A DNA stretch of 64,000 nucleotides, taken from NCBI GenBank assembly GCA_015057275.1, contig SVEO01000008.1:5594-69593 (forward strand), written 5' to 3'. The notes under the pieces were generated by a model. The model made no database searches and had not been told where the DNA came from. It was given only the letters and a program-made list of their open reading frames with translations. This DNA comes from Lachnospiraceae bacterium (lineage in GTDB: Bacteria; Bacillota; Clostridia; Lachnospirales; Lachnospiraceae). The translations under genes were made by a program, and so were the position numbers. Below, one piece after another: positions 30,429 through 45,746 of the stretch (positions within the stretch are counted from its first letter, which is position 1; the number at the start of each line of letters is the position of its first letter).

Positions 30429-31829
30429 TTGCTTTTTTCGAGTATTCCGTTTTTATATTATTTCTTGCCGGTGGTGCTTATATTATACTTCATCACACCG
30501 GCGCGACTGAAAAATTACACATTGCTTCTCGCAAGCCTATTCTTTTATGCATGGGGCGAACCACGCTATGTGGTGCTGATGCTCGTATCCGTCGGTGTAG
30601 GATATATTCTCGGTTTGCTCACAGAAAAAAGTAGGGGAAAAAAGGCTGCGAAAATGTGGCTTGCCCTGTCGGTGTTGTTTAGTGTATGTATGCTCGGTTA
30701 TTTTAAATATGCGGATTTTTTTCTTGCAAATTTTAATGCTGCAACCGGCTTATCCGTGCCGCTGTTACGAATTGCTTTGCCAATCGGTATCAGTTTTTAC
30801 ACATTTCAGCTCTTGAGCTATAATATCGATGTATACCGTGGTGATGCAGCAGCGCAGAAAAATCCATTTACGCTGGCGATGTACATTTCCTTGTTTCCGC
30901 AATTGATTGCGGGACCGATTGTGCGCTATGTGGATGTAGAGGAGCAGCTTGCGCGCAGAGGACATAGCTTTACGCGCGTAGCGCTTGGTATCCGCCGTTT
31001 TGTATTCGGACTTTCGAAAAAGGTGCTGATTGCCAATGCTCTTGGTGAATTGTGTGACATTTTTCGTGCTTCCGGCGAGTTGTCCGTGCTTTTTTACTGG
31101 ATGTACGCACTAGCTTTTACTTTGCATATTTATTTTGATTTTTCCGGCTACAGCGATATGGCCATAGGACTGGGACATATCTTTGGTTTTCATTTTATGG
31201 AGAATTTCCGCTACCCGTACATTTCAGCAAGCATTACGGAATTCTGGCGTCGCTGGCACATTTCATTGGGGAGTTGGTTCCGCGATTATGTGTATATTCC
31301 ACTCGGCGGCAACCGCGTCTCCAAACCAAGATGGTTTTTCAATATTTTTCTTGTGTGGATGTTGACCGGATTTTGGCATGGCGCGGCATGGAATTTCGTC
31401 GTTTGGGGACTGTTTTTTGCAGTGCTGCTGATAATTGAAAAACTGTGGCTTTTAAATGGACTTAAGCGTGCAAAAGTTTTATCACATATTTATGTGATAT
31501 TTTGTGTGGTTGTAAGCTTTGTGATTTTTAACGCTGCGGATTTGAGTCAGGCGATGGCCGACCTTGCGGGCATGTTTGGCGGATTAAATCTTCCGCTTGT
31601 GTCAGCAGAAACGGTATATTATTTGCGCAGCTTTCTGGTAGTGTTTGTGATTGCCATTATCGGAGCAACTCCGCTGCCGGTAAAAATTGTAGAGGCAGCA
31701 AAAAAAAGTAAGGCAGGGCAGCTTGTGTTAGATATCACAGAGCCGCTTTTGCTTGTGGTGTTTTTGCTACTTGTTACTGCGTACCTTGTGGACGGCTCAT
31801 TTAATCCGTTTTTATATTTCAGATTTTAG
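30429..31829 (+). CDS. MBOAT-family O-acyltransferase (AlgI/DltB-like)
   Basis: It is a multi-pass membrane protein starting MLFSSIPFLYYFLP, with the conserved region FWRRWHISLGSWFRDYVYIPLGGNR including the catalytic His. It has a TTG start 5 nt after AGGAGG. Confidence 0.88.
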   Translation: MLFSSIPFLYYFLPVVLILYFITPARLKNYTLLLASLFFYAWGEPRYVVLMLVSVGVGYILGLLTEKSRGKKAAKMWLALSVLFSVCMLGYFKYADFFLANFNAATGLSVPLLRIALPIGISFYTFQLLSYNIDVYRGDAAAQKNPFTLAMYISLFPQLIAGPIVRYVDVEEQLARRGHSFTRVALGIRRFVFGLSKKVLIANALGELCDIFRASGELSVLFYWMYALAFTLHIYFDFSGYSDMAIGLGHIFGFHFMENFRYPYISASITEFWRRWHISLGSWFRDYVYIPLGGNRVSKPRWFFNIFLVWMLTGFWHGAAWNFVVWGLFFAVLLIIEKLWLLNGLKRAKVLSHIYVIFCVVVSFVIFNAADLSQAMADLAGMFGGLNLPLVSAETVYYLRSFLVVFVIAIIGATPLPVKIVEAAKKSKAGQLVLDITEPLLLVVFLLLVTAYLVDGSFNPFLYFRF

Positions 31830-31840
31830 GAGGTGCCGGC

Positions 31841-32947
31841 ATGAGAGAAAGATTAAAAAGTAAAATGATTGTCAGCGTGATAGCGGCGGTCTTCTTTCCG
31901 CTTGCGGCATGGTGCATGTCAAAGGCGCCGGATGAATATTCGGACAGTGAGCGCAGGGTGCTCGCAGCGTCACCGGAGCTTACGCTCGAAAGTGTGCTGT
32001 CGACTGATTTTATGACGGATTTTGAAGATTATGCAACCGACCAGTTCCCGCTGCGCGACAGCTTTCGTAAATTAAAATCTACCACAGAATTCCATATATT
32101 TCACAAAATGGACAATAATGGTTTGTATTATAGAAGGGGGCATTTGTGCAAAATGGAATATCCGTTAAACACGGCGATGTTAGACCATGCAGCGGAGAGA
32201 TTTTTTTATCTGTATGAAGCGTACATGCAGGGCACGGATGTGAATATTTATTTTGGAATTGTGCCGGATAAAAATATGTATTTGGCAGGAGAAAGCGGAC
32301 ATTTGGCAATGGATTATGACGCACTTGCGGATTATATGCAGGAGCGGACGACGTATATGGAATACATCGACCTTTATGACATGCTTTCCATCGATGATTA
32401 TTATAAGACAGACACGCACTGGAAACAGGAGTGCATTGTCGATGTGGCGGAAAAGATTGCAGCTTGTATGGGTGTGACGTTGGAGGCAGGCTACACGGAA
32501 AATGTACTTGCGCATCCTTTTTATGGAGTGTACTACGGACAGGCATTGCTGGATGTGGATGCGGATGCGTTGACCTATCTTACGAATGATGTACTCGCGG
32601 CATGCAAGGTAACAAGCTATGATACCGGTATGCCGAAAGAAGTACCGCTTTACGACATGGATGCGGCAGCAGGCAAGGACCCGTACGAGATGTTTGCGGC
32701 CGGCTCCGATGCGCTGATTACCATTGAGAATCCGGGCGCAGAAACGGAACGCGAATTGGTAATTTTCCGTGATTCATTCGCAAGTAGCTTGGCACCTTTG
32801 CTGGTTGACGGATACTCGAAGATAACACTTGTAGACATTCGTTATGTGCAAAGCGCGATGCTTGGCAACTTTATTGATTTTGACAATCAGGATGTGCTGT
32901 TTTTATACAGTACGTTACTTTTAAATGACAGTTTAGCAATGAAATAA
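31841..32947 (+). CDS. DHHW-family protein (AlgX/AlgJ-like partner of MBOAT acyltransferases)
   Basis: It has an N-terminal anchor and a YYKTDTHW motif (a DHHW variant). It lies immediately downstream of the MBOAT gene, the usual pairing. Confidence 0.7.
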   Translation: MRERLKSKMIVSVIAAVFFPLAAWCMSKAPDEYSDSERRVLAASPELTLESVLSTDFMTDFEDYATDQFPLRDSFRKLKSTTEFHIFHKMDNNGLYYRRGHLCKMEYPLNTAMLDHAAERFFYLYEAYMQGTDVNIYFGIVPDKNMYLAGESGHLAMDYDALADYMQERTTYMEYIDLYDMLSIDDYYKTDTHWKQECIVDVAEKIAACMGVTLEAGYTENVLAHPFYGVYYGQALLDVDADALTYLTNDVLAACKVTSYDTGMPKEVPLYDMDAAAGKDPYEMFAAGSDALITIENPGAETERELVIFRDSFASSLAPLLVDGYSKITLVDIRYVQSAMLGNFIDFDNQDVLFLYSTLLLNDSLAMK

Positions 32948-32972: not shown

Positions 32973-34010
32973 GTGATTGAGATAAAAAACCTGACAAAAT
33001 TCTACTACAGTAGCGAGTCGGTGGCGCTGGCGCTTGACGATATCAGTCTTACGTTTGCGGTAGGCGATTTCGTAGCAATTACCGGCGAAAGTGGCAGCGG
33101 CAAAAGTACATTGCTCAAAGTGATGAACGGTACGGAAACGTACGAGGAAGGTGAGATGTGCTTCGATGGCGTGAAGACATCGGCGTTCGGCGATGAGGAC
33201 TGGGACCGACTGCGACGTGAGGAAATCGCAGTCGTCTATCAGGACTATCAAATATTGGACAATTATTCCGTGTTGGAAAATGTCGAGAGTGTGCTTTTGA
33301 TTTGTGAGGAACGCCTCGGCAAACTGACGCCGAAGGAGCGGCGGGCAAAGGCGATGTCCTACCTGGAAATTGTCGGATTAACCAAGCAGGCGAAACAGAA
33401 AGCCAGTCACATCTCCAGCGGACAGAAGCAGCGCCTGGCGATTGCCAGAGCGTTGGCGAAAAATTCGCAGATTATCATCGCCGACGAACCGACCGGCAAC
33501 CTTGACGTGGAAAACGGGCGCATGGTGATGCAGTTGCTCGCGGAGATTGCCAAAACGCGCTTAGTGATTGTCGTAACACACAACTATGAGCAGGCCGAGG
33601 ACTTTGTTACACGCCTGATCCGTCTGTATCGCGGTCAGGTTTCCGATGATATCCGCTTGCGGGAAAGCGCTCAGCTTCCGGCAACAGGAGCGGAAGCTGA
33701 GAATCATGAAACGCCTGAAAAGCGCATGCGAAAGAGAGACGCGGCCGGTGTATTTCTGAAGATGAATCTGCGAAGACAGCCGATTCGCAACGGATTTTTC
33801 TTCCTGTTGTGTCTGTGTCTGTCATTAGCGTTCCTCGTGTTCCTCGGTATCATCGCACAGAATCTCGATGACGCACAGGCGATGGAATACAATGAAAAAG
33901 CCTACTTTAACGGCGATGACACCCGCATTTTAATTCGCAATGTCGATGGCAGCGAGCTTACTGCAGACGATTTTGCGGCAATCTCGCAGGTAAAATATGT
34001 GGAACGGTGA
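32973..34010 (+). CDS. ABC transporter ATP-binding protein (FtsE/MacB-like) fused to the first TM and start of an FtsX-type permease
   Basis: It has Walker A GESGSGKST, signature SSGQKQRLAIARAL and Walker B IIIADEPTGNLD. A TM segment (FFFLLCLCLSLAFLVFLGII) and the start of an extracytoplasmic domain follow. Confidence 0.85.
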   Translation: MIEIKNLTKFYYSSESVALALDDISLTFAVGDFVAITGESGSGKSTLLKVMNGTETYEEGEMCFDGVKTSAFGDEDWDRLRREEIAVVYQDYQILDNYSVLENVESVLLICEERLGKLTPKERRAKAMSYLEIVGLTKQAKQKASHISSGQKQRLAIARALAKNSQIIIADEPTGNLDVENGRMVMQLLAEIAKTRLVIVVTHNYEQAEDFVTRLIRLYRGQVSDDIRLRESAQLPATGAEAENHETPEKRMRKRDAAGVFLKMNLRRQPIRNGFFFLLCLCLSLAFLVFLGIIAQNLDDAQAMEYNEKAYFNGDDTRILIRNVDGSELTADDFAAISQVKYVER

Positions 34011-34647
34011 AGAAAAAGTTTACTATGACTTGGAGATAAAGCATGAGACATTGGCAGACGGTACACAGACGACGGAGGAATCTGCTTCCGGACGCTACAC
34101 AATGAACGTCAGTCAGGAATTTTTCGACACCATCTATCCGGACCGCAAAACGGTACAGGGGGCAGTATATATTAAGGACTATGCCTACACGGACCGTGTC
34201 ATTAAGCAGTTGACCGACATGGGTTACGAAGCGATTAGTGTATTCCGGCTCGGTGCGGTGGCGTATGATGTAGAGATTGTTTACGAACGCCTGACCTCTG
34301 TATGCGTGGCAGCCGGTGCGCTGCTGGCGTTGTTTACCATCGGGGTAGTGCTGCTGGCGTTAATGATGAAGACAAAACAGCGGGATGATACGATTTTGCA
34401 TCTGCTCGGTATGAAACATAATGTAATTCGTAAGATAAATATGTTGTATTTTACAGGAATGCTTGTCGGTTCCGGCATACTTTCTGTTCTGCTGATGCAC
34501 GTACTAAAAGCTGCGGAAGTAAAACAAGTGGTCGATCTTGAAAAATATTTTATGTGGCCGCAGTACCTGATTTTTGGCGTTATTTTGGCCGTGCTTGGCA
34601 TTCTTCTTGGCAGGCGATATATGAAGCAATGGAAAAGTAGAATTTGA
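33997..34647 (+). CDS. FtsX-type permease, C-terminal part (rest of the extracytoplasmic domain plus 3 TM segments)
   Basis: TM segments lie near the C-terminus. It overlaps the previous ORF by 14 nt in another frame and looks like the continuation of the same protein. Confidence 0.65.
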   Translation: MWNGEEKVYYDLEIKHETLADGTQTTEESASGRYTMNVSQEFFDTIYPDRKTVQGAVYIKDYAYTDRVIKQLTDMGYEAISVFRLGAVAYDVEIVYERLTSVCVAAGALLALFTIGVVLLALMMKTKQRDDTILHLLGMKHNVIRKINMLYFTGMLVGSGILSVLLMHVLKAAEVKQVVDLEKYFMWPQYLIFGVILAVLGILLGRRYMKQWKSRI

Positions 34648-34681: not shown

Positions 34682-35866
34682 ATGATTTCCGGAGAAAGGA
34701 ACAGTAGGCGAATGGAGAACATGCAGTTGCCGATTAAAAGGCTTCTCTATGAAAAAGCGGCGAGAAATCATGTACCTGTTGGCGGAACCTTTGAATTAAC
34801 GCCCCGCTGTAATTTCAACTGTAAAATGTGTTACATACGGATGAGTGAGCAGGAAATGCGCCGTTACGGGAATGAGAAAAGCGCGGAAGAATGGATTGCT
34901 ATGGGGGAAGCGTGCGCAGAACAAGGAATGTTGTTTTTGCTTCTTACCGGCGGAGAAATCTTTTTACGTCGCGATTTTCTAAAAATTTATGAAGCCTTGG
35001 CAAAAAAAGGACTGTCGATTCAACTGAATACCAATGGTCTGCTGTTGAATGGAGAAATGCAGGCCGCATTGCTTGAGACACCGCCGGCAGTGATTAACGT
35101 CACGCTATATGGCGCCTGTGATGCCACATACGAGCGCTTATGTGGTATAAAAAAAGGCTTTACCATGGTGTCAGAGAATCTTGTTCGGGCGAAAGAAGCG
35201 GGGCTGAAAATAAACTTGCACGCCAGCTTTACGCCGGATAATGTGATGGATATGGATGCCATGTACGCATTTGCGAAGGAATATGATTTGCATATAGAAC
35301 CGGCATCTTACATGTTTCCACCAGTGAGAAATCATAAAGAAGGAATCCTTGAGGAAAATGTGAGATTCTCTGCGGAGGAAGCAGGTTTGGCAAGAGCAAA
35401 AGCTGTGTGCCTTGGCAACTTGCCGCAACATCTTTTTATGCTTGCAGAAAGGATGCAGGCTGCAAAGAAGGCAGAAACACAGGTTGCGCCGTCACTTGAA
35501 ACGATGTCGAAGGAACAAAGGCATATGGCGTGTATGGCGGGACGAGGGTCTTTTTGGATTACATGGGATGGCAGGATGACACCGTGCGGCATGATGAATG
35601 GCCCGGCAGTACATCCGTTTGAAAGCGGATTCGCGGATGCATGGCAGCGTATGACCGAATTGACGAAAGAAATTTATCTGCCGCAGGAATGTGTTCGATG
35701 TCACAAACGAGAATTCTGCATTTTATGCGCCGCTTTGGCCGGAGCGGAATCCGGAGGTGACACGGAAATCAAACCGGAGTATTTGTGCCGGATGACAGAT
35801 ATCTATATAGATGAAATATTACAATATGTAAAAATGAAGCAGGGAGGTATGCACGATGGAAACTAA
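34682..35866 (+). CDS. Radical SAM enzyme with a C-terminal SPASM domain
   Basis: The CX3CX2C motif is TPRCNFNCKMCY and the glycine-rich SAM motif is LLLTGGE. C-terminal auxiliary-cluster cysteines are CMAGRGSFWITWDGRMTPCG ... CVRCHKREFCILC. The radical SAM motif lies within ~50 aa of the N-terminus, leaving no room for an N-terminal RRE domain. The start could be ATG 34712. Confidence 0.85.
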   Translation: MISGERNSRRMENMQLPIKRLLYEKAARNHVPVGGTFELTPRCNFNCKMCYIRMSEQEMRRYGNEKSAEEWIAMGEACAEQGMLFLLLTGGEIFLRRDFLKIYEALAKKGLSIQLNTNGLLLNGEMQAALLETPPAVINVTLYGACDATYERLCGIKKGFTMVSENLVRAKEAGLKINLHASFTPDNVMDMDAMYAFAKEYDLHIEPASYMFPPVRNHKEGILEENVRFSAEEAGLARAKAVCLGNLPQHLFMLAERMQAAKKAETQVAPSLETMSKEQRHMACMAGRGSFWITWDGRMTPCGMMNGPAVHPFESGFADAWQRMTELTKEIYLPQECVRCHKREFCILCAALAGAESGGDTEIKPEYLCRMTDIYIDEILQYVKMKQGGMHDGN

Positions 35867-36572
35867 AACGGAGAAGAAGAAACTGATTGCAGCAATCGTA
35901 TCGGGAGTAGTGCTGGTACTAATTTTGGTATGTGCAACATGGTTTGCGAAGAACGACCTAAAAAATTCTTTGGTTGACAATGAAACGACAAAGTATGAAG
36001 AAGAAACAACCGAAGGCGACGGCGAAGATGAAGCGGTTGACGGAAACACCGGCGGCGAAGGAAATACGAATAACGAAAGCACCGGCGACGAAGAAGACAA
36101 TGCAGATAACGGAAGCACCGGAGGGAACGAAGGAAATACAAATACCGGAAGCACCGGCGGCGAAGGAAACACAAATAACGGAAACACCGGCGGCGAAGGA
36201 AACACGAATAACGGAAGCACCGGCGGTGAAGGAAACACGAATAACGGAAGCACCGGAGGGAACGAAGGAAACACGAATAACGGAGGCACCGGAGGGAACG
36301 AAGGAAACACGAATAACGGAGGCGCCGGAGATAACGAAGGAAATACAAATAACGGAAGTGCCGGCGACGGCGAAGGAGATTCGGAGGAAGCAACCACCGG
36401 CGGCAAAGTAGACTCGGAGGAAGAAACTACCGGCAGCGAAGGAGACTCGGAAGAAGAAACTACCGGTAGCGAAGGAGATTCGGAAGAAGAAACCACTACC
36501 GAAAAACCAACCATTATCATTGAGCCGATTGAGGGTGGCAATGATGGTAAGTGGAGTGAAATTGTAAAATAA
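35856..36572 (+). CDS. Membrane-anchored low-complexity repeat protein
   Basis: AGGGAGG at 35841-35847 lies 8 nt before ATG 35856. The start overlaps the radical SAM stop by 11 nt. It has one TM segment (LIAAIVSGVVLVLILVCATWF), about 10 copies of an 11-12-aa unit (S/N)TGG(N)EGNTNNG, then 3 copies of DSEEETTGSEG. Confidence 0.7.
   Translation: METKTEKKKLIAAIVSGVVLVLILVCATWFAKNDLKNSLVDNETTKYEEETTEGDGEDEAVDGNTGGEGNTNNESTGDEEDNADNGSTGGNEGNTNTGSTGGEGNTNNGNTGGEGNTNNGSTGGEGNTNNGSTGGNEGNTNNGGTGGNEGNTNNGGAGDNEGNTNNGSAGDGEGDSEEATTGGKVDSEEETTGSEGDSEEETTGSEGDSEEETTTEKPTIIIEPIEGGNDGKWSEIVK
36042..36500 (+). repeat. Imperfect 33/36-bp coding tandem repeats
   Basis: The unit ACCGGCGGCGAAGGAAACACGAATAACGGAAGC is repeated head to tail, followed by three 33-bp GACTCGGAAGAAGAAACTACCGG-type units. 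Confidence 0.85.
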
Positions 36573-36688: not shown

Positions 36689-36717
36689 TTGACAGATAAG
36701 AAAATGTTATTTAGAAT
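36689..36717 (+). promoter_or_regulatory. Sigma-A promoter for the giant GH43 gene
   Basis: TTGACA (36689-36694), a 17-nt spacer, then TAGAAT (36712-36717), in an AT-rich 286-bp intergenic region. Confidence 0.5.
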
Positions 36718-36858: not shown

Positions 36859-39800
36859 GTGAAGAAGAAATTCAACAGAATTTGCGCACTGGCAATGGCG
36901 TTTATTATGTTATTTTTCGTAGTCAGCCCGTATATCACATCATCAAAGATTGATGCTGCAGTATCGGATCCGAACGTGAATTATGTAAACAATAACGCAT
37001 ATGCAAGAGTACACGATCCGGTAATATTGGAGGACAACGGTACATACTACATGTATTCAACCGGTATTATCGGATGGGGCGTGGAGTTGCGTACATCTAC
37101 TGACTTGGTAAATTGGACCTATGTCAGTGAATTTGCAACATCACATGACAATGAACTTAAAGTGCCAGACGTTATGAATGCAACGAATAATGCAATGACA
37201 AACGTTTGGGCACCGGAAGTTATTAAGGTAGGCAGTGAATACTGGATGTACTACAGTTGCTCTGGGAGTGGTGGCCGTAATTCCTGTATGGCACTTGCGA
37301 AAGCAACCAGCCCGACAGGTCCGTTTACTTACGAAGGTATTGTGCTTCAGACAACTAACAGCACAGAATCTTACATGAACGGTATTGACGCTTCCATCGA
37401 ATACGACCAGGATGGCAATATGTGGATGTCCTATGGCTCGTTCTTTGGTGGTATCCGTGTGGTACAGTTAAACAGCAGCACCGGATTTTTAATGACAAGC
37501 GGAGATGAAGGCACGCTGATTGCCAGCAGACCATCTTCCATTGATAACGGTGCTGTAGAAGCTCCGGTTATCCGTTATCATGATGGTTATTACTATTTGT
37601 TTGTATCCTATGATAACTTATTTGGACCGGAACGTGGTGGCGGTGGAAGTTATCATGTACGTGTCGGCAGAAGTACAAGCATTACCGGTCCGTATGTTGA
37701 CCAGGATGGGGAAGCTATGCTTGTTGCCGGTGAAACAACCGGCTATAAGCTGACAGCAAACTACAAGTTTGACGGTGCAACCGGCTGGTGGGCAGTTGGA
37801 CACTGTGATATTTTAGAAACATCCGACGGAAAGTGGATTTATGCTTCTCATGCACGTGTGAACGGAGATCAGAATGCTCCGTATTCCTATATTCATCAGA
37901 TGACGTGGAACAAGGAAGGCTGGCCGACGCTCAGTCCGGAACCATATGTTGGTGAAACAATCGGAACGATGACGGAGGCAGATGCAGCAGGTAAGTATGA
38001 GCGTCTTGCTTTCCATGATAATAAGGAAACATTAGCAAATACACTGACTTCCGTTGAGATGAAGTTAAATTTGGATAAGACAGCAACCATCGAGGGAATC
38101 AGCGAAACCGGTACATGGAGTTTTTCCGGTGACAATACGGTAACCGTTACTGTTGGTGATGTAACAGAAGTTTACACATTGATGGAAGCATGGGACGCTG
38201 AAAACAATAAGGCAACGGTTGTATTAACCGGTAATGATTCCAACACACAGTTACAGCGTTGGGCAAAGCGTACGACGCAGTATAAAGAATCTGACGGCGC
38301 ACCGGTTGCACATTATGTGTCGGATGGCGCAACTTTCTATGATACCGTTACGGGAACATTAACCGGAACACTGGCAGGAAATGCAACCATTAGCGGTGAC
38401 AGTGTAACAACAACATACGAAGCTGGTAATACCGGACATACAAACTATGTTCAGATGACCAATCCGCTCAATGGAACAGAGGTAGACGAAGTTACGATTT
38501 CCTTGTTAGGAACCGTTGCTGCGAACGGACAGTATGCTCAGGTATTTACGTTCTATACATCTGCAGGATTCTTCTCTTTGAATGCGGATGGTTCCATTCA
38601 CTTTAATGACTGGAGCGGAAATTATTTTGATGATGCAGTAGATACTGCAATCAGCAATCAGACATCAGAGCATTTGTATTCCTTGGTAATTTCCGGAAAT
38701 ACGATTACGGTCTATTGTGATGAAACAGTCATTAACACCTATACAAATGCAACAAATGTTGCAGCGGTAAAGACGTTCTTAGCATCAGCAGATTATATGT
38801 CTCTTGGTACCGGTAATGATACTATGGGTGCCGGCGGACAGAACTGGTCTTGGCCAACCGCAGGTATGACTGTAAAAGAATTTATCGTACTTGATGAAGC
38901 GGTACCGGCAGATGAATTACTTGATTTGCCGGGAGTTGATGAGGCAGTTAAGTATACTGTAACAGCAACCGCAACTCCAGCCGCAGGCGGTAGCGTAAGC
39001 GGTGCAGGCACATATAAAGAAGGTGCAAGCGTGACATTGACCGCAACACCAAACACCGGTTACAGATTTACCGGATGGACGATTGGCGGTGAAAGCGTAG
39101 GAACTGAGACGACATATACGATTTCTTCTCTTGCTGAGGATGTGGAAGTGGTAGCAAACTTTGCTGAACTTCCAAAGTACACAGTAACAGCAACAGCAAA
39201 TCCAACCGCAGGCGGTAGTGTAAGCGGTGCGGGCGAATATAGTGAAGGCGCAAGTGCAACGGTAACCGCAACCGCAAATAGCGGTTATCAGTTTGTACGT
39301 TGGGAAGCTGCAAACGGTACGCAGGTAAGCACGAATGCAAGCTATACCTTTGAAGTAACTGCAGACACAGTATTGACTGCAGTCTTCGCAGAAAAGACAT
39401 TTGCACCGATTGCATATTATATTTCGGATGGCACAGAGTTCTATGATACCGTTCGAGACGGAGAAATCGGAACATTAGCAGGTAATGCAACCATTAGCGG
39501 TGACAGTGTAACAACAACATATGAAGCTGGTAATACCGGACATACAAACTATGTTCAGATGACCAATCCGCTCAATGGAACAGAGGTAGACGAAGTTACG
39601 ATTTCCTTGTTAGGAACCGTTGCTGCGAACGGACAGTATGCTCAGGTATTTACGTTCTATACATCTGCAGGATTCTTCTCTTTGAATGCGGATGGTTCCA
39701 TTCACTTTAATGACTGGAGCGGAAATTATTTTGATGATGCAGTAGATACTGCAATCAGCAATCAGACATCAGAGCATTTGTATTCCTTGGTAATTTCCGG

Positions 39801-42800
39801 AAATACGATTACGGTCTATTGTGATGAAACAGTCATTAACACCTATACAAATGCAACAAATGTTGCAGCGGTAAAGACGTTCTTAGCATCAGCAGATTAT
39901 ATGTCTCTTGGTACCGGTAATGATACTATGGGTGCCGGCGGACTGAACTGGTCTTGGCCAACCGCAGGTATGACTGTAAAAGAATTTATCGTACTTGATG
40001 AAGCGGTACCGGCAGATGAATTGCTTGATTTACCGGGCAATGCTCAAACAACCGAGTATACAGTAACTGCAACTGCAGATCCAACCGAGGGCGGTACAGT
40101 GAGCGGCGCAGGCACATATAAAGAAGGCGCAAGTGTGACATTAACCGCAACACCAAACACCGGTTACAGATTTACCGGATGGACGATTGGTGGCGAAAAC
40201 GTAGGAAATGCAACAACCTATACGATTTCCGATCTTGCAGCAGATACGGAAGTAGTAGCGAATTTTGAGGCAATTCCGACCTATACGGTAACAGCAACAG
40301 CAAACCCAGCCGCAGGCGGTAGCGTAAGCGGTGCAGGCACATACAGTGAAGGCGCAAGCGTGACATTGACAGCAACTGCAAGTATCGGCTATAAGTTTAC
40401 CGATTGGACGATTGGTGGCGAAAGCGTAGGAACTGAGACAACCTATACGATTTCTTCTCTTGCTGAGGATGTGGAAGTGGTAGCAAACTTTGCTGAACTT
40501 CCAAAGTACACAGTAACAACGACAGCAGATCCGGCCGCAGGCGGTAGTGTGAGCGGCGCAGGAACATATACGGAAGGATTTAGTGTAACAGTAACTGCTA
40601 GTGTAAATGAAGGATACAGATTTGTAGGATGGGAAAACGCATCCGGCACAGTCGTAAGCACCAATGCAAGTTATACGTTTAATGTAACAGAGGATGTCGC
40701 ATTAACAGCTGCATTTGAAGTAAAACCGGAAGGTGAATACGATGCACTTGCTTACTTTGTTTCCAGCGGCAATGTATTTTATGACACGGTACGTCCGGGA
40801 GAAGTTGGTGAGCTTGAGGGTGCATCAACGATTAACGGAGATACAGTAACAGTAACCAATAGCGGAGATGGTAATACCGGACATACAAACTATGTTCAGA
40901 TGACCAATCCACTCGCCGCATCAACGGTAGATGAAGTTACGGTTTCCTTATTAGGAACTGTTGACGCCGACGGAGAATATGCGACAGTATTTGCATTCTA
41001 TACAGATGAAGGCTTCTTCTCGCTTGCAGCAGACGGAACAATACACTTTAATGACTGGGATGGAAATTATTTTGATGATGAAGTAGATACTGCAATCAGC
41101 GATACCGCTTCCGAACACATGTATTCCTTAGTGATTTCCGGAGATACGATTACGGTATATTGTGATGGAGAAGTGATTAACACATATACAGATGCAACGA
41201 ATGTTGGATATGTAAAGACATTCTTGGCATCGGCAGATTATATGTCCATTGGTACCGGTAATGATACAAGTGGTGCAGACTGGTCCTGGCCATCTGCAGG
41301 CGTGAGCGTAAAAGAATTTATTGTTCTTGATGAGGCAGTACCGGCAGAGGATTTGGTTGATTTGGCGGGAACCTATCCGACACCAAGCTACGCGATTGCA
41401 ACGGACAAAACCGAAGGTGGTAAAGCAGCCGGTGGCGGTACTTACACAGCAGGTACAAGCGCAACTGTAATTGCGAGAGCGTTTGACGGTTATAAGTTCA
41501 CAGGTTGGACCAATAGTGATGGTAAAGTTGTAAGTAAACAATCCACATACACATTTGACGTCATCGAATCCACAACATTAACAGCAAACTTCAAACCGGT
41601 TAGTGCCGGCGCAAGTGATGGTCTGTTGTTCGGTTATGACTTTAACGATCCGGATGACTTGTTTGCACTTGTTGCAGGTAATACAGATATTCTTGAAACA
41701 TACACGGTTGTGGATTGGTATGAACAACCAAAGGTTCATGATATTTTATATGGCCCTCGTGATGAAGGTGTATTGGATGAAGCTTGTCCGGACCATATTA
41801 CAGCGGACCGTATCGATATGCCTTGGGGACCTTCAGCTAAGGAAGGTGATTATTATCTTGATTTCCTTGGTGTAATGAATAATACTTTTGATACTACCCA
41901 TATGTATGGTCTCAAAGCAGGTGGTACAGTAACATTACCTGAGAGTACAACATTTACGTTGTCCTACGATTACTATTCACCGTACAATCAGTTGGCTGCT
42001 GACTTTGGTACGATTACATTGCAGTTTGGTGATGCAAATCATTACTTAACAATCAAGGCGGGTGCTAGACAGATTTACGTTCAGAATGGTACTACCGGAT
42101 ATAATTTAAATCTGTTCTCAATTGAAAACGCACCAACAACATCCGTTGCAGTAGAAGACGTTTGGTATCATGTAACATTAAGTTTTAAATTGGATGAAGC
42201 TACGGACACCAGTAAGTTGACTGTGTATCTGACTCCTTACGATTCGGAAGGTAATTTATTAACCGACCAGCAGTTGGTAAGTACACAGGATACATTGACA
42301 AATCAAGAGTTCACCGTTCCGGCATTTGATTCAGAAGAAATCACAATGTATATCGGTACCGGTATCAATGCTTCTTACACACACAACTCTTACCTTGATA
42401 ACCTGTACATGTTCTCGGATGCTATGACAGACGATGAAGTTCAGGAAGAAATTGAAAACATCAATCGTCCGGTTGTTACCGGTAACAAGGTTATTGTACT
42501 GGACTACGGTTTAGATGTAACAACAGAAGTATTAGGCAGTCTGACTGCAACAGAAATTTTCAGTAAAGAACTGGTTGGTATTCGTATTTCTTCGGAAGCA
42601 TTACCGGAAATTGGTGATACCTTAGCAAGTGGTTTTGAAACCACAGCAACCGGCACGTATGGAACCGCATCCATGTCGGGCTCATATATCAGTTATTCGC
42701 TTGATAAGATGCTTAGCAATACAGAAGTAATTCAGTTTGCTGTGAAGTATACTTATATTGATTTGAGCGAACAGTATGTATATCATACCTTATCGATTGT

Positions 42801-44379
42801 TCCGGCAAAGACGGTATATTATGAAGATACTTTCGTATCATCCAATACCGTGAACGAGGAAGGTTCGACACAGAAGGATTCGCAGAGTGATGCGAATATC
42901 GTATATGGTTATGACGACGCATATGCAAACACAAGTAATGTAAACAGTAACGGTACCGTTGCCGATCTTGAAAGTGGCACAACCTTTACATTTACCGGTA
43001 CCGGTTTTGACTTAATCGGAAGAACAGACACCGATGGTTATATGATTAAGGTAACAGTCAAAGACGCATCTACCAATGCAACGAAAAAGATTGTGTACCT
43101 GAACACCTTCTATGAGGATGGTGCATTATATCAGTTACCACTTGTCAGCGTTACCGGATTAGCGCACGGAGATTATACCGTTCAGATTACATTGTTTGAT
43201 AAGAATAGCACGGAAGATGGCATGGGATGGAATTTCTATCTCGATGGTGTAAGAATTTACGATCCGTTGACAGAGAATGATGAAATGAAACTGTATTATG
43301 CAGATGGTGAAGCAGATGCAACCTTTGAAGAGTTCCGTAACTTAATCTTAGGAGACGATCCGTTGGCATTCATTACAGCATACACAGATGGCAGCATCGG
43401 TATCGGTGCAGGTTCTACATTCGTAGAGCAGTATGACGGTACGAATTATGACGAGGAAGACACCTTAACCAATAATCCTTCCAAGAATGTTCAGGCTTTG
43501 GAAGATTATTTACAGAGTGGTCCGAATAACGAGTTATACCTGACACCTGGTAATGCAGTTGCATTCTATGTTGAAAACGTTGTATCTTCTGAAAAACTGT
43601 TACAGTTTGGTGCGAAGTCCTTAAATGGCGGAAGCGGAACCGTAACGGTTGCAACCGTTACCGGTGGCACCACAAAGACAGATGTTCATCCAATTCAGAC
43701 AAGAACAGAAATGTATTATGCAATTAATACGGCAAATCTTTCAGCGACGGATAAGACATTGGTTGTGATTGCGAATACAAGCACAAGCGAATATATTTCT
43801 TTGACACAGTTAAAGAGTTGTGGTTATGCTTTAGCAGAAACGATGCTGACACAGGAAGAGATTCTGATTTCCATGTCAGGTACAGAATACGAAGAGATTA
43901 TTGCAACCCTCGATTACATTTATCTTGGTAATGCGGAAGTAGAAAATACAGACGGATTTGATATTGAAATTATGGGTTCGCAGATCGATACTGCAAAATC
44001 AGGAACACTTGGTATTGTTGCCGGTATGCCGGTTCTGGATTACTACAATAACATTGCAGGACTTACAGAAGTCGGAATGGTACTGATGACAGCGGATGAC
44101 ATTGCGAATATGGATGCAGTTACAGAGAGCGTGAAAGCAGATATGGCAGAAAGCTTGACCGTAAATGCTTCCGGTGCAACAACCGTTAGCACACCGTCCT
44201 TGCAGTATGACTATTCGGAAAGCTCAACAGCAGCATTCAGAGTTATTATTTCAGGCATTACAGAAACAGAAACGGTTTATTTTGCAAGAGCTTATGCGAT
44301 TGTAAACGGTGAAACGATTTATGGTGATGTATATGCGACATCTCTTGCATATGTACAAGAGCAGTTGGGGGTACAATAA
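36859..44379 (+). CDS. Secreted multidomain protein, 2506 aa: N-terminal glycoside hydrolase family 43 domain, three lectin/LamG-like modules, and ~8 InlB-B-repeat-like (Listeria-Bacteroides repeat type) modules
   Basis: It has a signal peptide. GH43-like motifs are VHDPVILEDNGTYYMYST, NVWAPEVIKVGSEYWMYYS and GAVEAPVIRYHDGYYYLFVSYD. The repeated module is YTVTATA.PAAGGSVSGAGTY.EGASVTLTATPN.GY.F.GWT. It has a GTG start after AGGAGG. Confidence 0.8.
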   Translation: MKKKFNRICALAMAFIMLFFVVSPYITSSKIDAAVSDPNVNYVNNNAYARVHDPVILEDNGTYYMYSTGIIGWGVELRTSTDLVNWTYVSEFATSHDNELKVPDVMNATNNAMTNVWAPEVIKVGSEYWMYYSCSGSGGRNSCMALAKATSPTGPFTYEGIVLQTTNSTESYMNGIDASIEYDQDGNMWMSYGSFFGGIRVVQLNSSTGFLMTSGDEGTLIASRPSSIDNGAVEAPVIRYHDGYYYLFVSYDNLFGPERGGGGSYHVRVGRSTSITGPYVDQDGEAMLVAGETTGYKLTANYKFDGATGWWAVGHCDILETSDGKWIYASHARVNGDQNAPYSYIHQMTWNKEGWPTLSPEPYVGETIGTMTEADAAGKYERLAFHDNKETLANTLTSVEMKLNLDKTATIEGISETGTWSFSGDNTVTVTVGDVTEVYTLMEAWDAENNKATVVLTGNDSNTQLQRWAKRTTQYKESDGAPVAHYVSDGATFYDTVTGTLTGTLAGNATISGDSVTTTYEAGNTGHTNYVQMTNPLNGTEVDEVTISLLGTVAANGQYAQVFTFYTSAGFFSLNADGSIHFNDWSGNYFDDAVDTAISNQTSEHLYSLVISGNTITVYCDETVINTYTNATNVAAVKTFLASADYMSLGTGNDTMGAGGQNWSWPTAGMTVKEFIVLDEAVPADELLDLPGVDEAVKYTVTATATPAAGGSVSGAGTYKEGASVTLTATPNTGYRFTGWTIGGESVGTETTYTISSLAEDVEVVANFAELPKYTVTATANPTAGGSVSGAGEYSEGASATVTATANSGYQFVRWEAANGTQVSTNASYTFEVTADTVLTAVFAEKTFAPIAYYISDGTEFYDTVRDGEIGTLAGNATISGDSVTTTYEAGNTGHTNYVQMTNPLNGTEVDEVTISLLGTVAANGQYAQVFTFYTSAGFFSLNADGSIHFNDWSGNYFDDAVDTAISNQTSEHLYSLVISGNTITVYCDETVINTYTNATNVAAVKTFLASADYMSLGTGNDTMGAGGLNWSWPTAGMTVKEFIVLDEAVPADELLDLPGNAQTTEYTVTATADPTEGGTVSGAGTYKEGASVTLTATPNTGYRFTGWTIGGENVGNATTYTISDLAADTEVVANFEAIPTYTVTATANPAAGGSVSGAGTYSEGASVTLTATASIGYKFTDWTIGGESVGTETTYTISSLAEDVEVVANFAELPKYTVTTTADPAAGGSVSGAGTYTEGFSVTVTASVNEGYRFVGWENASGTVVSTNASYTFNVTEDVALTAAFEVKPEGEYDALAYFVSSGNVFYDTVRPGEVGELEGASTINGDTVTVTNSGDGNTGHTNYVQMTNPLAASTVDEVTVSLLGTVDADGEYATVFAFYTDEGFFSLAADGTIHFNDWDGNYFDDEVDTAISDTASEHMYSLVISGDTITVYCDGEVINTYTDATNVGYVKTFLASADYMSIGTGNDTSGADWSWPSAGVSVKEFIVLDEAVPAEDLVDLAGTYPTPSYAIATDKTEGGKAAGGGTYTAGTSATVIARAFDGYKFTGWTNSDGKVVSKQSTYTFDVIESTTLTANFKPVSAGASDGLLFGYDFNDPDDLFALVAGNTDILETYTVVDWYEQPKVHDILYGPRDEGVLDEACPDHITADRIDMPWGPSAKEGDYYLDFLGVMNNTFDTTHMYGLKAGGTVTLPESTTFTLSYDYYSPYNQLAADFGTITLQFGDANHYLTIKAGARQIYVQNGTTGYNLNLFSIENAPTTSVAVEDVWYHVTLSFKLDEATDTSKLTVYLTPYDSEGNLLTDQQLVSTQDTLTNQEFTVPAFDSEEITMYIGTGINASYTHNSYLDNLYMFSDAMTDDEVQEEIENINRPVVTGNKVIVLDYGLDVTTEVLGSLTATEIFSKELVGIRISSEALPEIGDTLASGFETTATGTYGTASMSGSYISYSLDKMLSNTEVIQFAVKYTYIDLSEQYVYHTLSIVPAKTVYYEDTFVSSNTVNEEGSTQKDSQSDANIVYGYDDAYANTSNVNSNGTVADLESGTTFTFTGTGFDLIGRTDTDGYMIKVTVKDASTNATKKIVYLNTFYEDGALYQLPLVSVTGLAHGDYTVQITLFDKNSTEDGMGWNFYLDGVRIYDPLTENDEMKLYYADGEADATFEEFRNLILGDDPLAFITAYTDGSIGIGAGSTFVEQYDGTNYDEEDTLTNNPSKNVQALEDYLQSGPNNELYLTPGNAVAFYVENVVSSEKLLQFGAKSLNGGSGTVTVATVTGGTTKTDVHPIQTRTEMYYAINTANLSATDKTLVVIANTSTSEYISLTQLKSCGYALAETMLTQEEILISMSGTEYEEIIATLDYIYLGNAEVENTDGFDIEIMGSQIDTAKSGTLGIVAGMPVLDYYNNIAGLTEVGMVLMTADDIANMDAVTESVKADMAESLTVNASGATTVSTPSLQYDYSESSTAAFRVIISGITETETVYFARAYAIVNGETIYGDVYATSLAYVQEQLGVQ
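38381..38933 (+). repeat. Internal near-identical duplication, copy 1
   Basis: The ~550 bp are almost base-for-base identical to 39485-40037 (offset 1104 bp = 368 codons). I saw only a handful of substitutions. Confidence 0.9.
39485..40037 (+). repeat. Internal near-identical duplication, copy 2
   Basis: See copy 1. A third, clearly diverged copy lies around 40800-41340. Confidence 0.9.
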
Positions 44380-44412: not shown

Positions 44413-44715
44413 ATGAAGAAAACATATATAAAGCCATGTGTTTTTCGTGAGGAATATATTCTGAGCCAAATGATTGCGGGTAGCTGTGATTCCGGTTTAA
44501 AGGTAAATTCCAGTGGTTACGATTGTTTCAAAACCTACTACGACACCAATGGTGGAACCGGCAATCCGATTATTGATATGATTTATCAGGATTCTCTTTT
44601 AGATGGCGGCAAATTGTTCTCCGGCGGAGTTGGCGGATGTAGTGAATGGTATGGAGAAGATACGTTAGGCGGTCTTTGCTATCAGAACTCCGGTTTAGTT
44701 GTATTCTCTTCTTAG
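44413..44715 (+). CDS. Small Cys/Gly-rich protein with a RiPP-leader-like N-terminus (candidate precursor peptide)
   Basis: It begins MKKTYIKPCVFREEYILSQMIAGSC (a YxxPxV motif), has 4 further Cys and Gly-rich stretches, and ends in VVFSS. There is no signal peptide. A hairpin and an HPr-kinase-like gene follow. Confidence 0.5.
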   Translation: MKKTYIKPCVFREEYILSQMIAGSCDSGLKVNSSGYDCFKTYYDTNGGTGNPIIDMIYQDSLLDGGKLFSGGVGGCSEWYGEDTLGGLCYQNSGLVVFSS

Positions 44716-44749
44716 TCGGAAAACTACAGGTTTAAAGTAAAATGATTAT

Positions 44750-44789
44750 GGGGATGCTTTTACGTATTACGAAAAGGCATCCCCTTATT
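44750..44789 (+). terminator. Hairpin (possible leaky terminator) between the small ORF and the kinase-like gene
   Basis: GGGGATGCTTTT / AAAAGGCATCCCC (one bulge) with a 10-nt loop, followed by TTATT, which is a weak T-tract. Confidence 0.5.
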
Positions 44790-44793
44790 CAAA

Positions 44794-45696
44794 GTGATGG
44801 GTACTGGTAAAATGATAAAATATTTTTACAATATTCAATTGGCAGAAAATAAAATCCGTATCGTCAGTGATTTCCCAATTGCACAGACAAAGAAAAATTG
44901 CAAATTTTTTACGGAGTGCGATGCTTCGGAGGCGGAAGAGGAAATACCGGCTTATCGCGTAACTTGTGAAGATTTTAAAATACCGGAGCAAGCGGTGGTA
45001 TGCGGGAATAACGGTGATAAAAATTTATACCGAGATAGAAATGTATATTATCGTGAGTTGATTCGCATGATGAACGGGTCCAACATCCGTGCGGTTTCCG
45101 TGTATTCGAGTGAATTCATGGGATGCGCCGGGAACATCTACGTTGATGAGCGAATTCGCGACGGTCTTCAGGGGGAACTGAATATAATTGATTATCTGCC
45201 ATTAGAACAGATGCTGCTTTGGCAAAAATCATTAATTTTGCATAGCTCCTTTGTCCTGCATCATGGTGTTGCTATATTGTTTACCGGTCCGAGTGGCATC
45301 GGAAAATCCTCGCAGGCAGATCTTTGGCGGAAATACTTGCAGGCACAGATTATTAACGGTGACCGTGCAATCATTAAATGGCATGCAGAAAAGGACAGAT
45401 ATTTTGCATATGGGAGTCCATATTCCGGTTCATCGCCATATTGTGAAAATAAGAGTGCGCCGCTTGTCGCAATCATTTTGCTGGAGCAGGCAGAAAAAAA
45501 TCAAATAGAACCGGTTTCATCTGCAGAAGCATACATGAAACTGTTCAGCCAGGTTACAATCAATCAGACGGACAGAACAAGCGTAGAAAACGCACTGGAA
45601 ATGGTAGAACAGTGGGTACGAAAAATACCGATATATCGCCTGAAATGTCGATTGGATAAAGAGGCGGTAGAGCTTGTTCGAAAAGTAATTGAATAA
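44794..45696 (+). CDS. HPr-kinase-related P-loop protein (HprK C-terminal-domain-like)
   Basis: The C-terminal half reads LHSSFVLHHGVAILFTGPSGIGKSSQADLW ... INGDRAII ... YGSPYSGSS, which matches the HprK-type P-loop arrangement seen in RiPP-associated HprK-related kinases (by recall). The start is uncertain (GTG 44794 or ATG 44812). The gene is AT-richer than its flanks. Confidence 0.6.
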   Translation: MMGTGKMIKYFYNIQLAENKIRIVSDFPIAQTKKNCKFFTECDASEAEEEIPAYRVTCEDFKIPEQAVVCGNNGDKNLYRDRNVYYRELIRMMNGSNIRAVSVYSSEFMGCAGNIYVDERIRDGLQGELNIIDYLPLEQMLLWQKSLILHSSFVLHHGVAILFTGPSGIGKSSQADLWRKYLQAQIINGDRAIIKWHAEKDRYFAYGSPYSGSSPYCENKSAPLVAIILLEQAEKNQIEPVSSAEAYMKLFSQVTINQTDRTSVENALEMVEQWVRKIPIYRLKCRLDKEAVELVRKVIE

Positions 45697-45705
45697 AAAA
45701 GAAGT

Positions 45706-45746
45706 GAGTGGGAATTTATTTGTATGAAATAAGTTCCCACTCTTTT
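45706..45746 (+). terminator. Intrinsic terminator after the kinase-like gene
   Basis: GAGTGGGAA (45706-45714) / TTCCCACTC (45734-45742) followed by TTTT. Confidence 0.7.

Follow-up and report, generated by a model that had tools for sequence, protein, structure and literature searches.

Among the described systems closest to the locus is the SynChlorMet (SCM) cassette, which we take to be a bioinformatic definition only. It comprises ScmC, the radical SAM/SPASM proteins ScmE and ScmF and a PqqD homologue (TIGR04249-04251). A small protein is the target of radical SAM chemistry in quinohemoprotein amine dehydrogenase, whose gamma subunit QhpC is crosslinked by the radical SAM/SPASM enzyme QhpD. 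In the lasso peptides, the HprK-type kinases PadeK and PsmK phosphorylate the C-terminal Ser of leader-bearing precursors, and an NTP-transferase extends the phosphate (PMC6993621). The kinase precedent had been named in the original prediction for this locus and is borne out by that paper. Literature searches on ScmC, SynChlorMet, and HprK/HPr kinase with radical SAM and RiPP returned lasso-peptide papers only.

Layout of the locus and its relatives

The window is the whole stretch of Lachnospiraceae DNA that was analysed, 64,000 nucleotides in length. The following features, all on the forward strand, are considered here.

32973..34647, +, 345-aa ABC ATPase overlapped by a 216-aa membrane protein (possible exporter)
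34682..35866, +, radical SAM/SPASM maturase, 394 aa (Pfam Radical_SAM, 1.7e-21; SPASM models)
35856..36572, +, 238-aa protein, TM-anchored at its N-terminus, then G/N/T/E low-complexity repeats (translation)
36689..36717, +, promoter-like site TTGACA-17-TAGAAT (11/12 matches, a consensus match only)
36859..44379, +, giant secreted protein, 2,506 aa (domain matches, giant-family membership)
42466..43908, +, conserved module of the giant, aa ~1870-2350 (BLASTP segments)
44413..44715, +, precursor-like gene of 100 aa, here called SMALL (translation, family HMM, alignment, pN/pS)
44750..44784, +, intercistronic stem-loop between SMALL and ScmC (MFE -25.7 kcal/mol, z=-4.3 vs shuffles)
44794..45696, +, ScmC-family P-loop protein, 300 aa from GTG (PF27840, HMMs, AF2, Foldseek)
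45706..45742, +, terminator-like hairpin and T run (16-pair stem, then TTTTGATTTG)

The promoter-like site precedes the giant gene, and the strong, intrinsic-terminator-like hairpin at 45706..45742 closes the giant-SMALL-ScmC unit. As the three genes are bracketed by these sites, the arrangement is consistent with one operon. The imperfect hairpin that had been predicted after the SMALL gene proved to be real, with a T tract too weak for a classical terminator. A phase-variable promoter (inverton) linked to the nearby integrase was considered and rejected, as the promoter regions have no flanking inverted repeats.

The comparison set consisted of 83 related loci, 42 of which carry SMALL. In all 42 the small gene is immediately adjoined by ScmC, and in 37 of the 42 a homologue of the radical SAM enzyme (rSAM) lies within ~2 kb. 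SMALL also co-occurs with a giant gene (35/7/2/39 across the 83 loci; Fisher p=5e-14). The canonical order of the cassette is GIANT - SMALL - (TM protein) - ScmC - rSAM - PqqD. A search begun from SMALL, not from ScmC, recovers the same cassette, as GIANT - SMALL - 229/244 aa - ScmC - rSAM - PqqD. In the window the order is rSAM - TM protein - GIANT - SMALL - ScmC, and this copy is a reduced and rearranged cassette without PqqD. An HMM built from the PqqD proteins of 46 related loci gave a best E-value of 0.44 in the window, and no PqqD was found. HMMs for Wzz/BY-kinase, CpsB, NTP_transf_5 and surface-Ig likewise found nothing among the window ORFs.

The related cassettes are often embedded in surface-polymer loci of the capsule/EPS type (Wzz/BY-kinase/CpsB/LCP), NTP_transf_5 genes recur in 19 of the related loci and fused ABC exporters in 45, and AgrA/AgrC-like LytTR two-component systems are present in type B cassettes. 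In the loci of the closest homologue (L001-L006) and in L022 no rSAM gene lies within 10 kb; the rSAM step may be one that can be dispensed with, or it may be performed in trans. In the same loci ScmC stays with SMALL where rSAM, PqqD and the polymer genes are missing. The window behaves similarly: ScmC is kept with SMALL though PqqD and the polymer genes are absent and rSAM is distant.

As in the SCM cassette, a ScmC-family protein has an rSAM/SPASM partner, here one whose alignment to ScmE extends over the full length, and the full SMALL cassettes contain PqqD as well. The SCM cassette has two rSAM enzymes, whereas the SMALL cassettes have one and are found in Clostridia. They differ further in having an identifiable precursor family, giant proteins and surface-polymer genes, and the window copy has no PqqD.

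The small protein family

The 100-aa ORF at 44413-44715, which had been predicted to end in Ser-Ser, does so on translation (MKKTYIKPCVFREEYILSQMIAGSCDS...GLVVFSS). A purine-rich RBS, aaaggga, stands 7-8 nt 5' of it. The leader occupies approximately residues 1-22 (44413-44478), with A22 as the predicted core start. The predicted details of the core also hold, namely four Cys after Ala22, Met at -2 and no Asp/Glu at positions 7-9 (G-L-K).

The ORF has zero matches in Pfam and NCBIfam, and the family to which it belongs is unnamed, with no earlier database annotation. It is nevertheless matched by an HMM built from the other loci only (E=1.5e-10). A profile search puts the family at 593 clusters when sequences are grouped at 90% identity and at 2,123 representatives when the level is 50%. 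The hosts are gut and rumen Clostridia, and the carriers include the cultivable Faecalicatena contorta, Dorea acetigenes and Bariatricus sp. The family pattern consists of an MKK-x-Y-x-K-P leader, E-x-F, I-A at ~21-22, four Cys, a C-Y motif and a C-terminal (F/I)-x-S. In an alignment of 98 members K3, Y5, P8, A22, C25, C38, F69, C89, Y90 and S100 are invariant, and position 10 is hydrophobic. Four Cys are present in 89 of the 98. Ser is the last residue in 90 and is followed by one further residue in the remainder. The core is 60-78 aa long and is variable in sequence apart from the conserved Cys.

All of the invariant columns are present in the window ORF, whose conserved positions are C25, C38, F69, C76, C89-Y90 and the C-terminal S100. 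It also contains a ~20-aa core insertion, common only to P0002. The window protein thus belongs to an unannotated family whose members have ~80 aa, and is itself divergent and extended. Comparison with a 65%-identical homologue gave pN=0.22 and pS=0.77 (pS being saturated), which shows purifying selection on the window gene. That the ORF arose by chance between genes is hardly credible; its small size and the missing annotation are all that speak for such an origin. Against these stand 2,123 diverse homologues of constant length, pN far below pS, the RBS and the conserved synteny.

The Y-x-x-P motif of the original prediction is recovered in the invariant K3, Y5 and P8, and marks the leader as of the RRE-binding, lasso-like type. 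The leader is of the same design as the lasso leaders of Firmicutes (PMC7533575). The system resembles the paeninodin and pseudomycoidin clusters (PadeK/PsmK and the nucleotidyltransferase PsmN) in its MKK-x-(Y/W)-x-x-P leader, its C-terminal Ser and the HprK-fold gene beside the precursor, and in the PqqD, NTP_transf_5 and ABC genes of the SMALL-related loci. It differs from them in having no cyclase, B2 protease, Thr at -2 or ring Asp/Glu. Its core is 3-4 times longer with four conserved Cys, and its partner is an rSAM/SPASM enzyme.

The decayed cluster that had been suggested, or a highly atypical lasso cluster, from which cyclase and protease would have disappeared, is very improbable. The leader, the terminal Ser and the HprK-like neighbour would fit such an origin. 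However, no Asn-synthetase-like cyclase was found among the cluster ORFs or the scanned window ORFs of at least 500 aa. No transglutaminase-like B/B2 peptidase was found among the cluster ORFs, the large window ORFs or the recurrent families of the 83 loci, and the cyclase is likewise missing from those families. Neither Thr at -2 nor a ring-forming Asp/Glu at core positions 7-9 is conserved in the SMALL alignment. The family is moreover large, under selection and consistently paired with rSAM/SPASM. The presence of SMALL always beside an HPr-kinase-fold enzyme, and usually with rSAM and a giant, indicates a peptide or small-protein maturation system rather than a broken lasso cluster. The original prediction was to stand or fall partly on whether the ORF has homologues and whether these occur with such kinases. 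Homologues are many and always lie beside an HprK-fold protein, so it is not refuted on that ground.

AF2 gave no confident fold for SMALL with the 98-sequence alignment (pLDDT 46.6), as is expected of a precursor. No signal peptide was found on it.

The ScmC-family protein and the radical SAM enzyme

The neighbour of SMALL had been described as HprK-like, which agrees with its predicted fold and, apart from one metal-binding Asp, with its active-site motifs. Its scores fall below the Hpr_kinase_C and TIGR HprK cut-offs, and it belongs instead to the ScmC family. The NCBI model of the gene starts at the ATG at 44812 and encodes 294 aa. The identical protein P0003 has a precomputed PF27840 assignment, as do nearly all of 270 homologues. 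The best NCBIfam match is TIGR04249 (2e-5), with 24 bits against an equivalog cut-off of 125, which makes the protein a family member and not an equivalog. Hpr_kinase_C (PF07475) gave E 0.012 and 15.6 bits against a cut-off of 33.3, TIGR00679 14.3 bits against 240 and TIGR04352 13.3 bits against 200.

The AF2 model of the protein has a pLDDT of 94.5, and Foldseek matches it to PEPCK and HprK/P (E~1e-5 to 1e-6, TMt ~0.5). The modelled structure is thus that of an HprK/PEPCK-type kinase fold. The predicted motifs FTGPSGIGKSS, INGDRAII and YGSPYSGSS are present, and H-x-S...G-x-S-G-x-G-K-S...D-R lines up with the HprK structures 1jb1 and 2qmh. His150, the P-loop G-x-S-G-x-G-K-S, D190 and R191 are kept, but ScmC has an invariant Gly (NGDR) where HprK has the first of its two metal-binding Asp (ADDR). 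Fold and motif are what ScmC has in common with HprK/P (PF07475, TIGR00679), from which it is set apart by scores under the family thresholds, Gly for the first Asp, a different, all-beta N-terminal domain and the lack of an HPr/PTS context. Compared with the lasso kinases it is probably a different subfamily, with NGDR in place of the ADDR read from HprK 1jb1/2qmh. The N-terminal domain was also considered as a hidden RRE; this was rejected, as the model is all-beta and not a winged helix.

ScmC homologues also lie beside other families of small proteins, in which the terminal Ser is lacking and a Cys stands 3-6 residues before the end. A general tie of ScmC to a terminal Ser was therefore rejected, and the role of C-terminal-Ser kinase cannot be general for ScmC. 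This bears on the possibility that ScmC does not act on SMALL but serves the surface-polymer machinery or the giant, leaving SMALL as an rSAM-only substrate or a signalling peptide. Such a division of labour would suit the unrelated partners of ScmC, many without a terminal Ser, the embedding of loci in capsule/EPS-type genes and the LytTR systems of type B cassettes. It is considered improbable, given that ScmC is next to SMALL in 42 of 42 loci, even where rSAM, PqqD and the polymer genes are missing, and that the Wzz/BY-kinase/CpsB genes were not found in the window.

The original prediction had noted an absence of lasso machinery. This holds for the cyclase, the protease and PqqD, but an rSAM/SPASM maturase is encoded in the window at 34682-35866. 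The enzyme aligns full length to the AhbD, NirJ2 and ScmE SPASM models. Its cysteines comprise CNFNCKMC (CX3CX2C) and C284, C302, C336, C339, C346, C349 and C368, and these seven C-terminal Cys, read directly, form the SPASM auxiliary-cluster motif. Homologues (E 1e-78 to 1e-100) adjoin ScmC and SMALL in type A loci; the window gene is 8.5 kb upstream of SMALL with the giant gene in between. The suggestion of a new, kinase-modified system stands in so far as the type is undescribed. It is not, however, kinase-only, as the regular partner is rSAM/SPASM, with PqqD in full cassettes.

The 238-aa gene overlaps the rSAM stop and occupies the place of the TM-anchored unk263 of related cassettes. An unk263 HMM detected no homology among the window ORFs, and the protein is a positional analogue only. 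The ABC ATPase/membrane protein pair stands directly upstream of the rSAM gene. It is a possible exporter, its membership of the system being uncertain.

Sactipeptide and ranthipeptide systems (SCIFF, subtilosin, freyrasin) share with SMALL the Cys-bearing leader peptides, a 7-Cys rSAM/SPASM and, in full cassettes, an RRE/PqqD. In contrast, the SMALL rSAM is not fused to an RRE, the core is much longer with only four widely spaced Cys, the HprK-like partner is obligatory and the thioether is only predicted.

The giant protein and the proposed pathway

The giant protein contains a signal peptide, GH43 and GH43_C, six Flg_new_2 repeats and duplicated LamG-like blocks. A module of ~450 aa (aa ~1870-2350) is the only region common to the giants of 37 related loci by BLASTP; it has zero matches in Pfam and NCBIfam. 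It is probably the hallmark of the family of giants found together with SMALL. An LPXTG anchor is lacking in most of the giants that were examined. The gap between the giant gene and SMALL is 1-34 nt across the loci, often with translational coupling. The link to a giant secreted protein did not figure in the original prediction. A second giant ORF in the window, at 22266-28454 on the reverse strand, bears no relation to the giants of the cassettes; its resemblance is to a phage tail protein.

The best explanation as a whole, with a probability of roughly 0.6, is that SMALL is a genuine precursor matured by rSAM and ScmC and has a surface role with the giant. The leader would dock the precursor on a PqqD-type RRE, encoded in the full cassettes and absent from the window. 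The rSAM/SPASM enzyme may then modify the core, most plausibly by Cys-derived thioether crosslinks. By analogy with PadeK/PsmK, ScmC would move a phosphate of ATP to a hydroxyl, most plausibly that of the C-terminal Ser. The mature product could be exported via an ABC transporter and, as the synteny suggests, would work alongside the giant protein on the cell surface. Counted against this explanation are NGDR for ADDR, the missing window PqqD, the SMALL loci with no rSAM nearby (L001-L006 and L022), the ScmC partners without a terminal Ser and a core (60-78 aa) far longer than typical RiPP cores.

A fuller version of this pathway is put forward tentatively. The locus may represent an undescribed system in which a lasso-type leader/RRE/kinase toolkit is combined with radical SAM chemistry to give a crosslinked, C-terminally phosphorylated small protein of ~60 aa, a dedicated partner of the giant. 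The product, possibly also glycosylated, might be an anchor, adaptor, activator or signal for giant adhesins/glycosidases, recognising them via the shared ~450-aa module.

A rather unlikely alternative takes SMALL for a structural or accessory subunit whose maturation follows the QhpC/QhpD pattern. After removal of the leader and crosslinking of the Cys by the rSAM/SPASM enzyme, the product would serve the giant as an anchor, an adaptor or a stoichiometric partner, with ScmC as a maturation kinase or an ATP-dependent chaperone. The analogy with the Qhp precedent lies in a leader-bearing small protein of ~80-100 aa, few essential Cys, an rSAM/SPASM enzyme and a larger extracytoplasmic partner. 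The small-protein size of the core, the tight coupling and strong association (p=5e-14) of SMALL with the giant, and giants with one common module and without LPXTG anchors would all agree with a subunit. However, QhpC/QhpD has no sequence relationship to SMALL, there is no quinone cofactor context and the partner protein is another. AF2 finds no fold for SMALL, which also has no signal peptide, and the dedicated ABC exporters of the loci would suit a released peptide equally.

Among the dominant bacteria of gut and rumen are the Lachnospiraceae and Oscillospiraceae. To our knowledge, little has been established about the retention, maturation or regulation of the giant glycosidases and adhesins that they secrete. 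The association of more than 2,000 diverse small genes with an HprK-fold enzyme, rSAM/SPASM and giants represents a widespread, tractable and uncharacterised system. If the proposed pathway is true, it would show RiPP research a lasso-type leader/RRE/kinase module recombined with radical SAM chemistry, and SMALL would be the first identifiable substrate family for the orphan ScmC/SCM-type cassettes.

SMALL, a conserved precursor-like family

The 100-aa ORF named in the original prediction is encoded as quoted, 33 nt downstream of the stop of a giant ORF, and is preceded by a purine-rich RBS. The hairpin and P-loop gene placed after it are also present, the latter with all three of its quoted motifs.

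36689-36717: best promoter-like site (TTGACA-17-TAGAAT), 5′ of the giant gene
36859-44379 (+): giant ORF, 2,506 aa
44413-44715 (+): SMALL ORF, 100 aa, from translation
44750-44784: stem-loop, -25.7 kcal/mol, z=-4.3, without a good T tract
44794-45696 (+): P-loop gene (ScmC), 300 aa, FTGPSGIGKSS, INGDRAII, YGSPYSGSS
45706-45742: strong terminator-like site, 3′ of the P-loop gene

As the promoter-like and terminator-like sites bracket them, the giant gene, SMALL and ScmC look like one transcription unit, judged by consensus sites.

A single-sequence search with SMALL returned only an identical protein from a Lachnospiraceae MAG and P0002, a homologue at 65% identity (pN=0.22, pS=0.77, the latter saturated). 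Loci around ScmC homologues were then fetched and scanned for KK.Y.KP, giving ~28 distinct small ORFs immediately 5′ of the P-loop homologues. A profile search extended the family to 593 clusters (90% identity) and to 2,123 representatives (50% identity), 738 of them with E<=1e-10. All 2,123 are stand-alone proteins of roughly 75-105 aa. No Pfam domain was found among the members listed, and the few named by their source are 'hypothetical protein'. The window protein matched an HMM built without it at E=1.5e-10. SMALL is a true gene, one of a large family.

The design consists of a leader, Cys residues and a C-terminal Ser. K3, Y5, P8, A22, C25, C38, F69, C89, Y90 and S100 are invariant in the alignments, including that of 98 members, and M1, K2, K7, E13, F15, I21 and C76 are nearly so. 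Exactly four Cys occur in 89 of the 98 members; Ser is the last residue in 90 and the penultimate in the remaining 8. A ~20-aa insertion in the core sets the window protein and P0002 apart as a longer branch. Both also carry an extra Cys within the leader (KPC; Cys9, window 44437-44439; locus L001, 10043-10045), which is missing from every other aligned member listed in full. When AlphaFold2 was run on the 98-member alignment, no confident fold emerged (pLDDT 46.6), which is consistent with a precursor that may be structured by modification or by a partner.

Longer relatives of 100-150 aa, with the leader MK..W/Y..P....F..NEYVAAC, a C-terminal Ser and different cores, adjoin rSAM (radical SAM/SPASM) and ScmC genes (L013 2583-2891 and 10399-10854; L024 8010-8456; L040 8060-8482; L070 8100-8489). 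The leader appears to be a module common to several core families.

The kinase-fold neighbour ScmC

The resemblance of the P-loop protein to HPr kinase holds for the fold, the catalytic His, the P-loop and the Asp-Arg pair. The curated HprK models are matched weakly and over the P-loop only (Hpr_kinase_C E=0.012, TIGR00679 0.018, TIGR04352 0.033), and the family is instead ScmC: TIGR04249 is the best NCBIfam match (2e-5, below cut-off), and PF27840 is found on the identical protein and on nearly all of 270 homologues in a large protein database. Because of the sub-threshold scores and the different context, it is not HprK/P proper.

An 82-homologue profile searched against PDB sequences gave HprK/P (1ko7) as the best match (E=0.0023). 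LHaS...FtGPSGiGKSTQA...iiNGDR aligns with MHGV...ITGDSGVGKSETA...LIADDR of the L. casei enzyme; the catalytic His, P-loop, second Asp and Arg are retained, and the first Asp is replaced by an invariant Gly. AlphaFold2 modelled the protein confidently (pLDDT 94.5, pTM 0.90), and the Foldseek matches of this model are structures of ATP-dependent PEPCK and of HprK/P (E 1e-5 to 1e-6). The PEPCK-like kinase fold is a known fold that includes HprK. The P-loop protein is thus a ScmC-family enzyme with a predicted HprK-type fold. The N-terminal ~130 residues were considered as a PqqD/RRE winged helix and rejected, the model being all-beta with no resemblance.

Partner enzyme, giant proteins and cassette architecture

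The original prediction had found no lasso machinery. Cyclase and protease are indeed missing, the other large window ORFs scanned being housekeeping genes with no Asn-synthetase-like cyclase among them, but a partner was overlooked. The ORF at 34682-35866 (+) encodes a radical SAM protein that aligns over its full length to the SPASM-type models AhbD, NirJ2 and ScmE, with CNFNCKMC and seven C-terminal Cys in the SPASM pattern. Across 92 fetched loci, a ScmC homologue almost always adjoins a homologue of this enzyme (E 1e-47 to 1e-100); the window rSAM groups with the SMALL-accompanying clade (E 1e-78 to 1e-100).

Recurrent families from clustering of all neighbour genes (number of related loci)
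PqqD: 46
Fused ABC exporter: 45
Wzz + BY-kinase-like: 40
Giant proteins: 37
~270-aa surface-Ig protein: 35
unk263 (TM-anchored, ~260 aa): 33
CpsB: 24
NTP_transf_5: 19

Further recurrent neighbours are LytR_cpsA_psr, S24-like peptidase, epimerases, LuxR-STAND regulators and LytTR/GHKL two-component systems. Type A cassettes take two forms, (PqqD - unk263 -) SMALL - ScmC - rSAM - GIANT and GIANT - SMALL - (unk263) - ScmC - rSAM - (unk263) - PqqD. Type B cassettes lack a giant and read PqqD - rSAM - other small-protein families - ScmC - ABC - surface-Ig - Wzz/BY-kinase - CpsB. The co-occurrence of SMALL homologues with the kinase-like gene was borne out by three look-ups seeded with SMALL, independent of ScmC, each giving GIANT - SMALL - 229/244 aa - ScmC - rSAM - PqqD. 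SMALL and GIANT occur together in 35 of 83 de-duplicated loci (SMALL only 7, GIANT only 2, neither 39; Fisher p=5e-14), and rSAM lies <=~2 kb from SMALL in 37/42.

In the window the genes run integrase - lipoprotein - MBOAT - DHHW - ABC ATPase - membrane protein - rSAM/SPASM - p238 - GIANT - SMALL - ScmC, followed by UppP and FtsK. PqqD, unk263, Wzz/BY-kinase, CpsB and NTP_transf_5 were not detectable across the 64 kb. The P0002 loci hold just GIANT - SMALL - ScmC, with no rSAM found within 10 kb, and L022 resembles them in its reduced content. ScmC and SMALL are therefore the most tightly linked pair, and the window/P0002 branch is a reduced cassette.

The 238-aa protein p238 (35856-36572, +), whose start overlaps the rSAM stop codon, has a TM anchor and is nearly all G/N/T/E low-complexity repeats (GGNEGNTNNGxTG units); a 240-aa antisense ORF over the same DNA is probably spurious. 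The MBOAT acyltransferase and DHHW genes (30429-32947, +) precede the ABC and rSAM genes and make up a pair of the type used for O-acylation of surface polymers; MBOAT has homologues in L039 and L071 as well. A tyrosine recombinase (28605-29441, +) adjoins a 2,062-aa ORF (22266-28454, -) that has no relation to the cassette giants and is similar to a phage tail or host-recognition protein. As a related integrase also lies upstream of the L010 cassette, this may be a mobile stretch or what is left of a prophage.

The N-terminal payloads of the giants vary: the window giant carries GH43 and Flg_new_2, that of L010 VWA and Ig, and those of L093 and L095 GH20. The single region common to them, window giant aa ~1870-2350, has no Pfam or NCBIfam match. 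The giants examined carry Sec signal peptides, and for the most part they lack an LPXTG anchor. Many cassette giants end in a similar amphipathic, aromatic, basic tail (e.g. ...IERFIKNLQSVIKNIFGRWF, ...FFEKMFQKIGQWFQNLFGGK, ...MWNWFKSLF), among them, without LPXTG, those of L010 (3419-7648), L029, L030, L035, L036, L044, L058, L059, L063, L050, L089 and L090. This tail, missing from the window giant, may be a common signal for retention or sorting. In the window, the giant gene encodes two nearly identical ~350-aa blocks (aa ~480-830 and ~850-1200; AxYxSDG...LamG-like...VPADELLDLPG) besides repeated Flg_new_2 units. These repeats point to recent internal duplication and could be a source of assembly or recombination problems.

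In type B loci such as L080, L082, L088, L071, L052 and L069, the region surrounding the ScmC match (position ~10 kb) combines ScmC, rSAM and PqqD with 90-150-aa families marked by the motif W-x-x-W/GF-x-G-x-GW and by a Cys lying 3-6 residues before the C-terminus. Their small genes adjoin Agr-like LytTR response regulator/GHKL histidine kinase pairs and Wzz/BY-kinase/CpsB, and the product may be a modified-peptide quorum signal that controls surface polymers.

Proposed maturation and relation to known systems

The locus is not a lasso cluster, because cyclase, protease, Thr at -2 and ring acceptor are all missing. The suggestion of a decayed one gives way to the recurrent rSAM/SPASM cassette. 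The SynChlorMet cassette, a bioinformatically defined combination of ScmC, rSAM/SPASM and PqqD, is similar; what the present system adds is a precursor family that can be recognised and a giant protein as partner. The literature search found no paper on ScmC or SynChlorMet, nor on radical SAM RiPP clusters with HprK-type proteins; the papers found that combine PqqD, HPr kinase and nucleotidyltransferase are on lasso peptides. The system is placed within RRE/rSAM RiPP-like maturation.

The SMALL leader is similar to leaders of lasso precursors from Firmicutes, for example MKKDWTIPTLEV..., MKAWNTPVIETLEINETAA|GG and MTYNKPSFEK... (PMC7533575), and would presumably be bound by the PqqD-type RRE of full cassettes; the window itself has no RRE, which speaks against such docking here. 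The four invariant Cys would most plausibly be crosslinked by the rSAM/SPASM enzyme. ScmC would most plausibly phosphorylate a hydroxyl, the obvious candidate being the invariant terminal Ser. PadeK and PsmK, of the HprK family, phosphorylate exactly this residue of lasso precursors (PMC6993621). The nucleotidyltransferase-family protein PsmN adds a hexose to the phosphate (PMC6993621). Against this target, ScmC also accompanies small-protein families without a terminal Ser; against a kinase role, it lacks the first metal-binding Asp. The ABC genes suggest export, and synteny suggests a role with the giant. The significance of the system lies in the SMALL family itself, which is large and host-associated.
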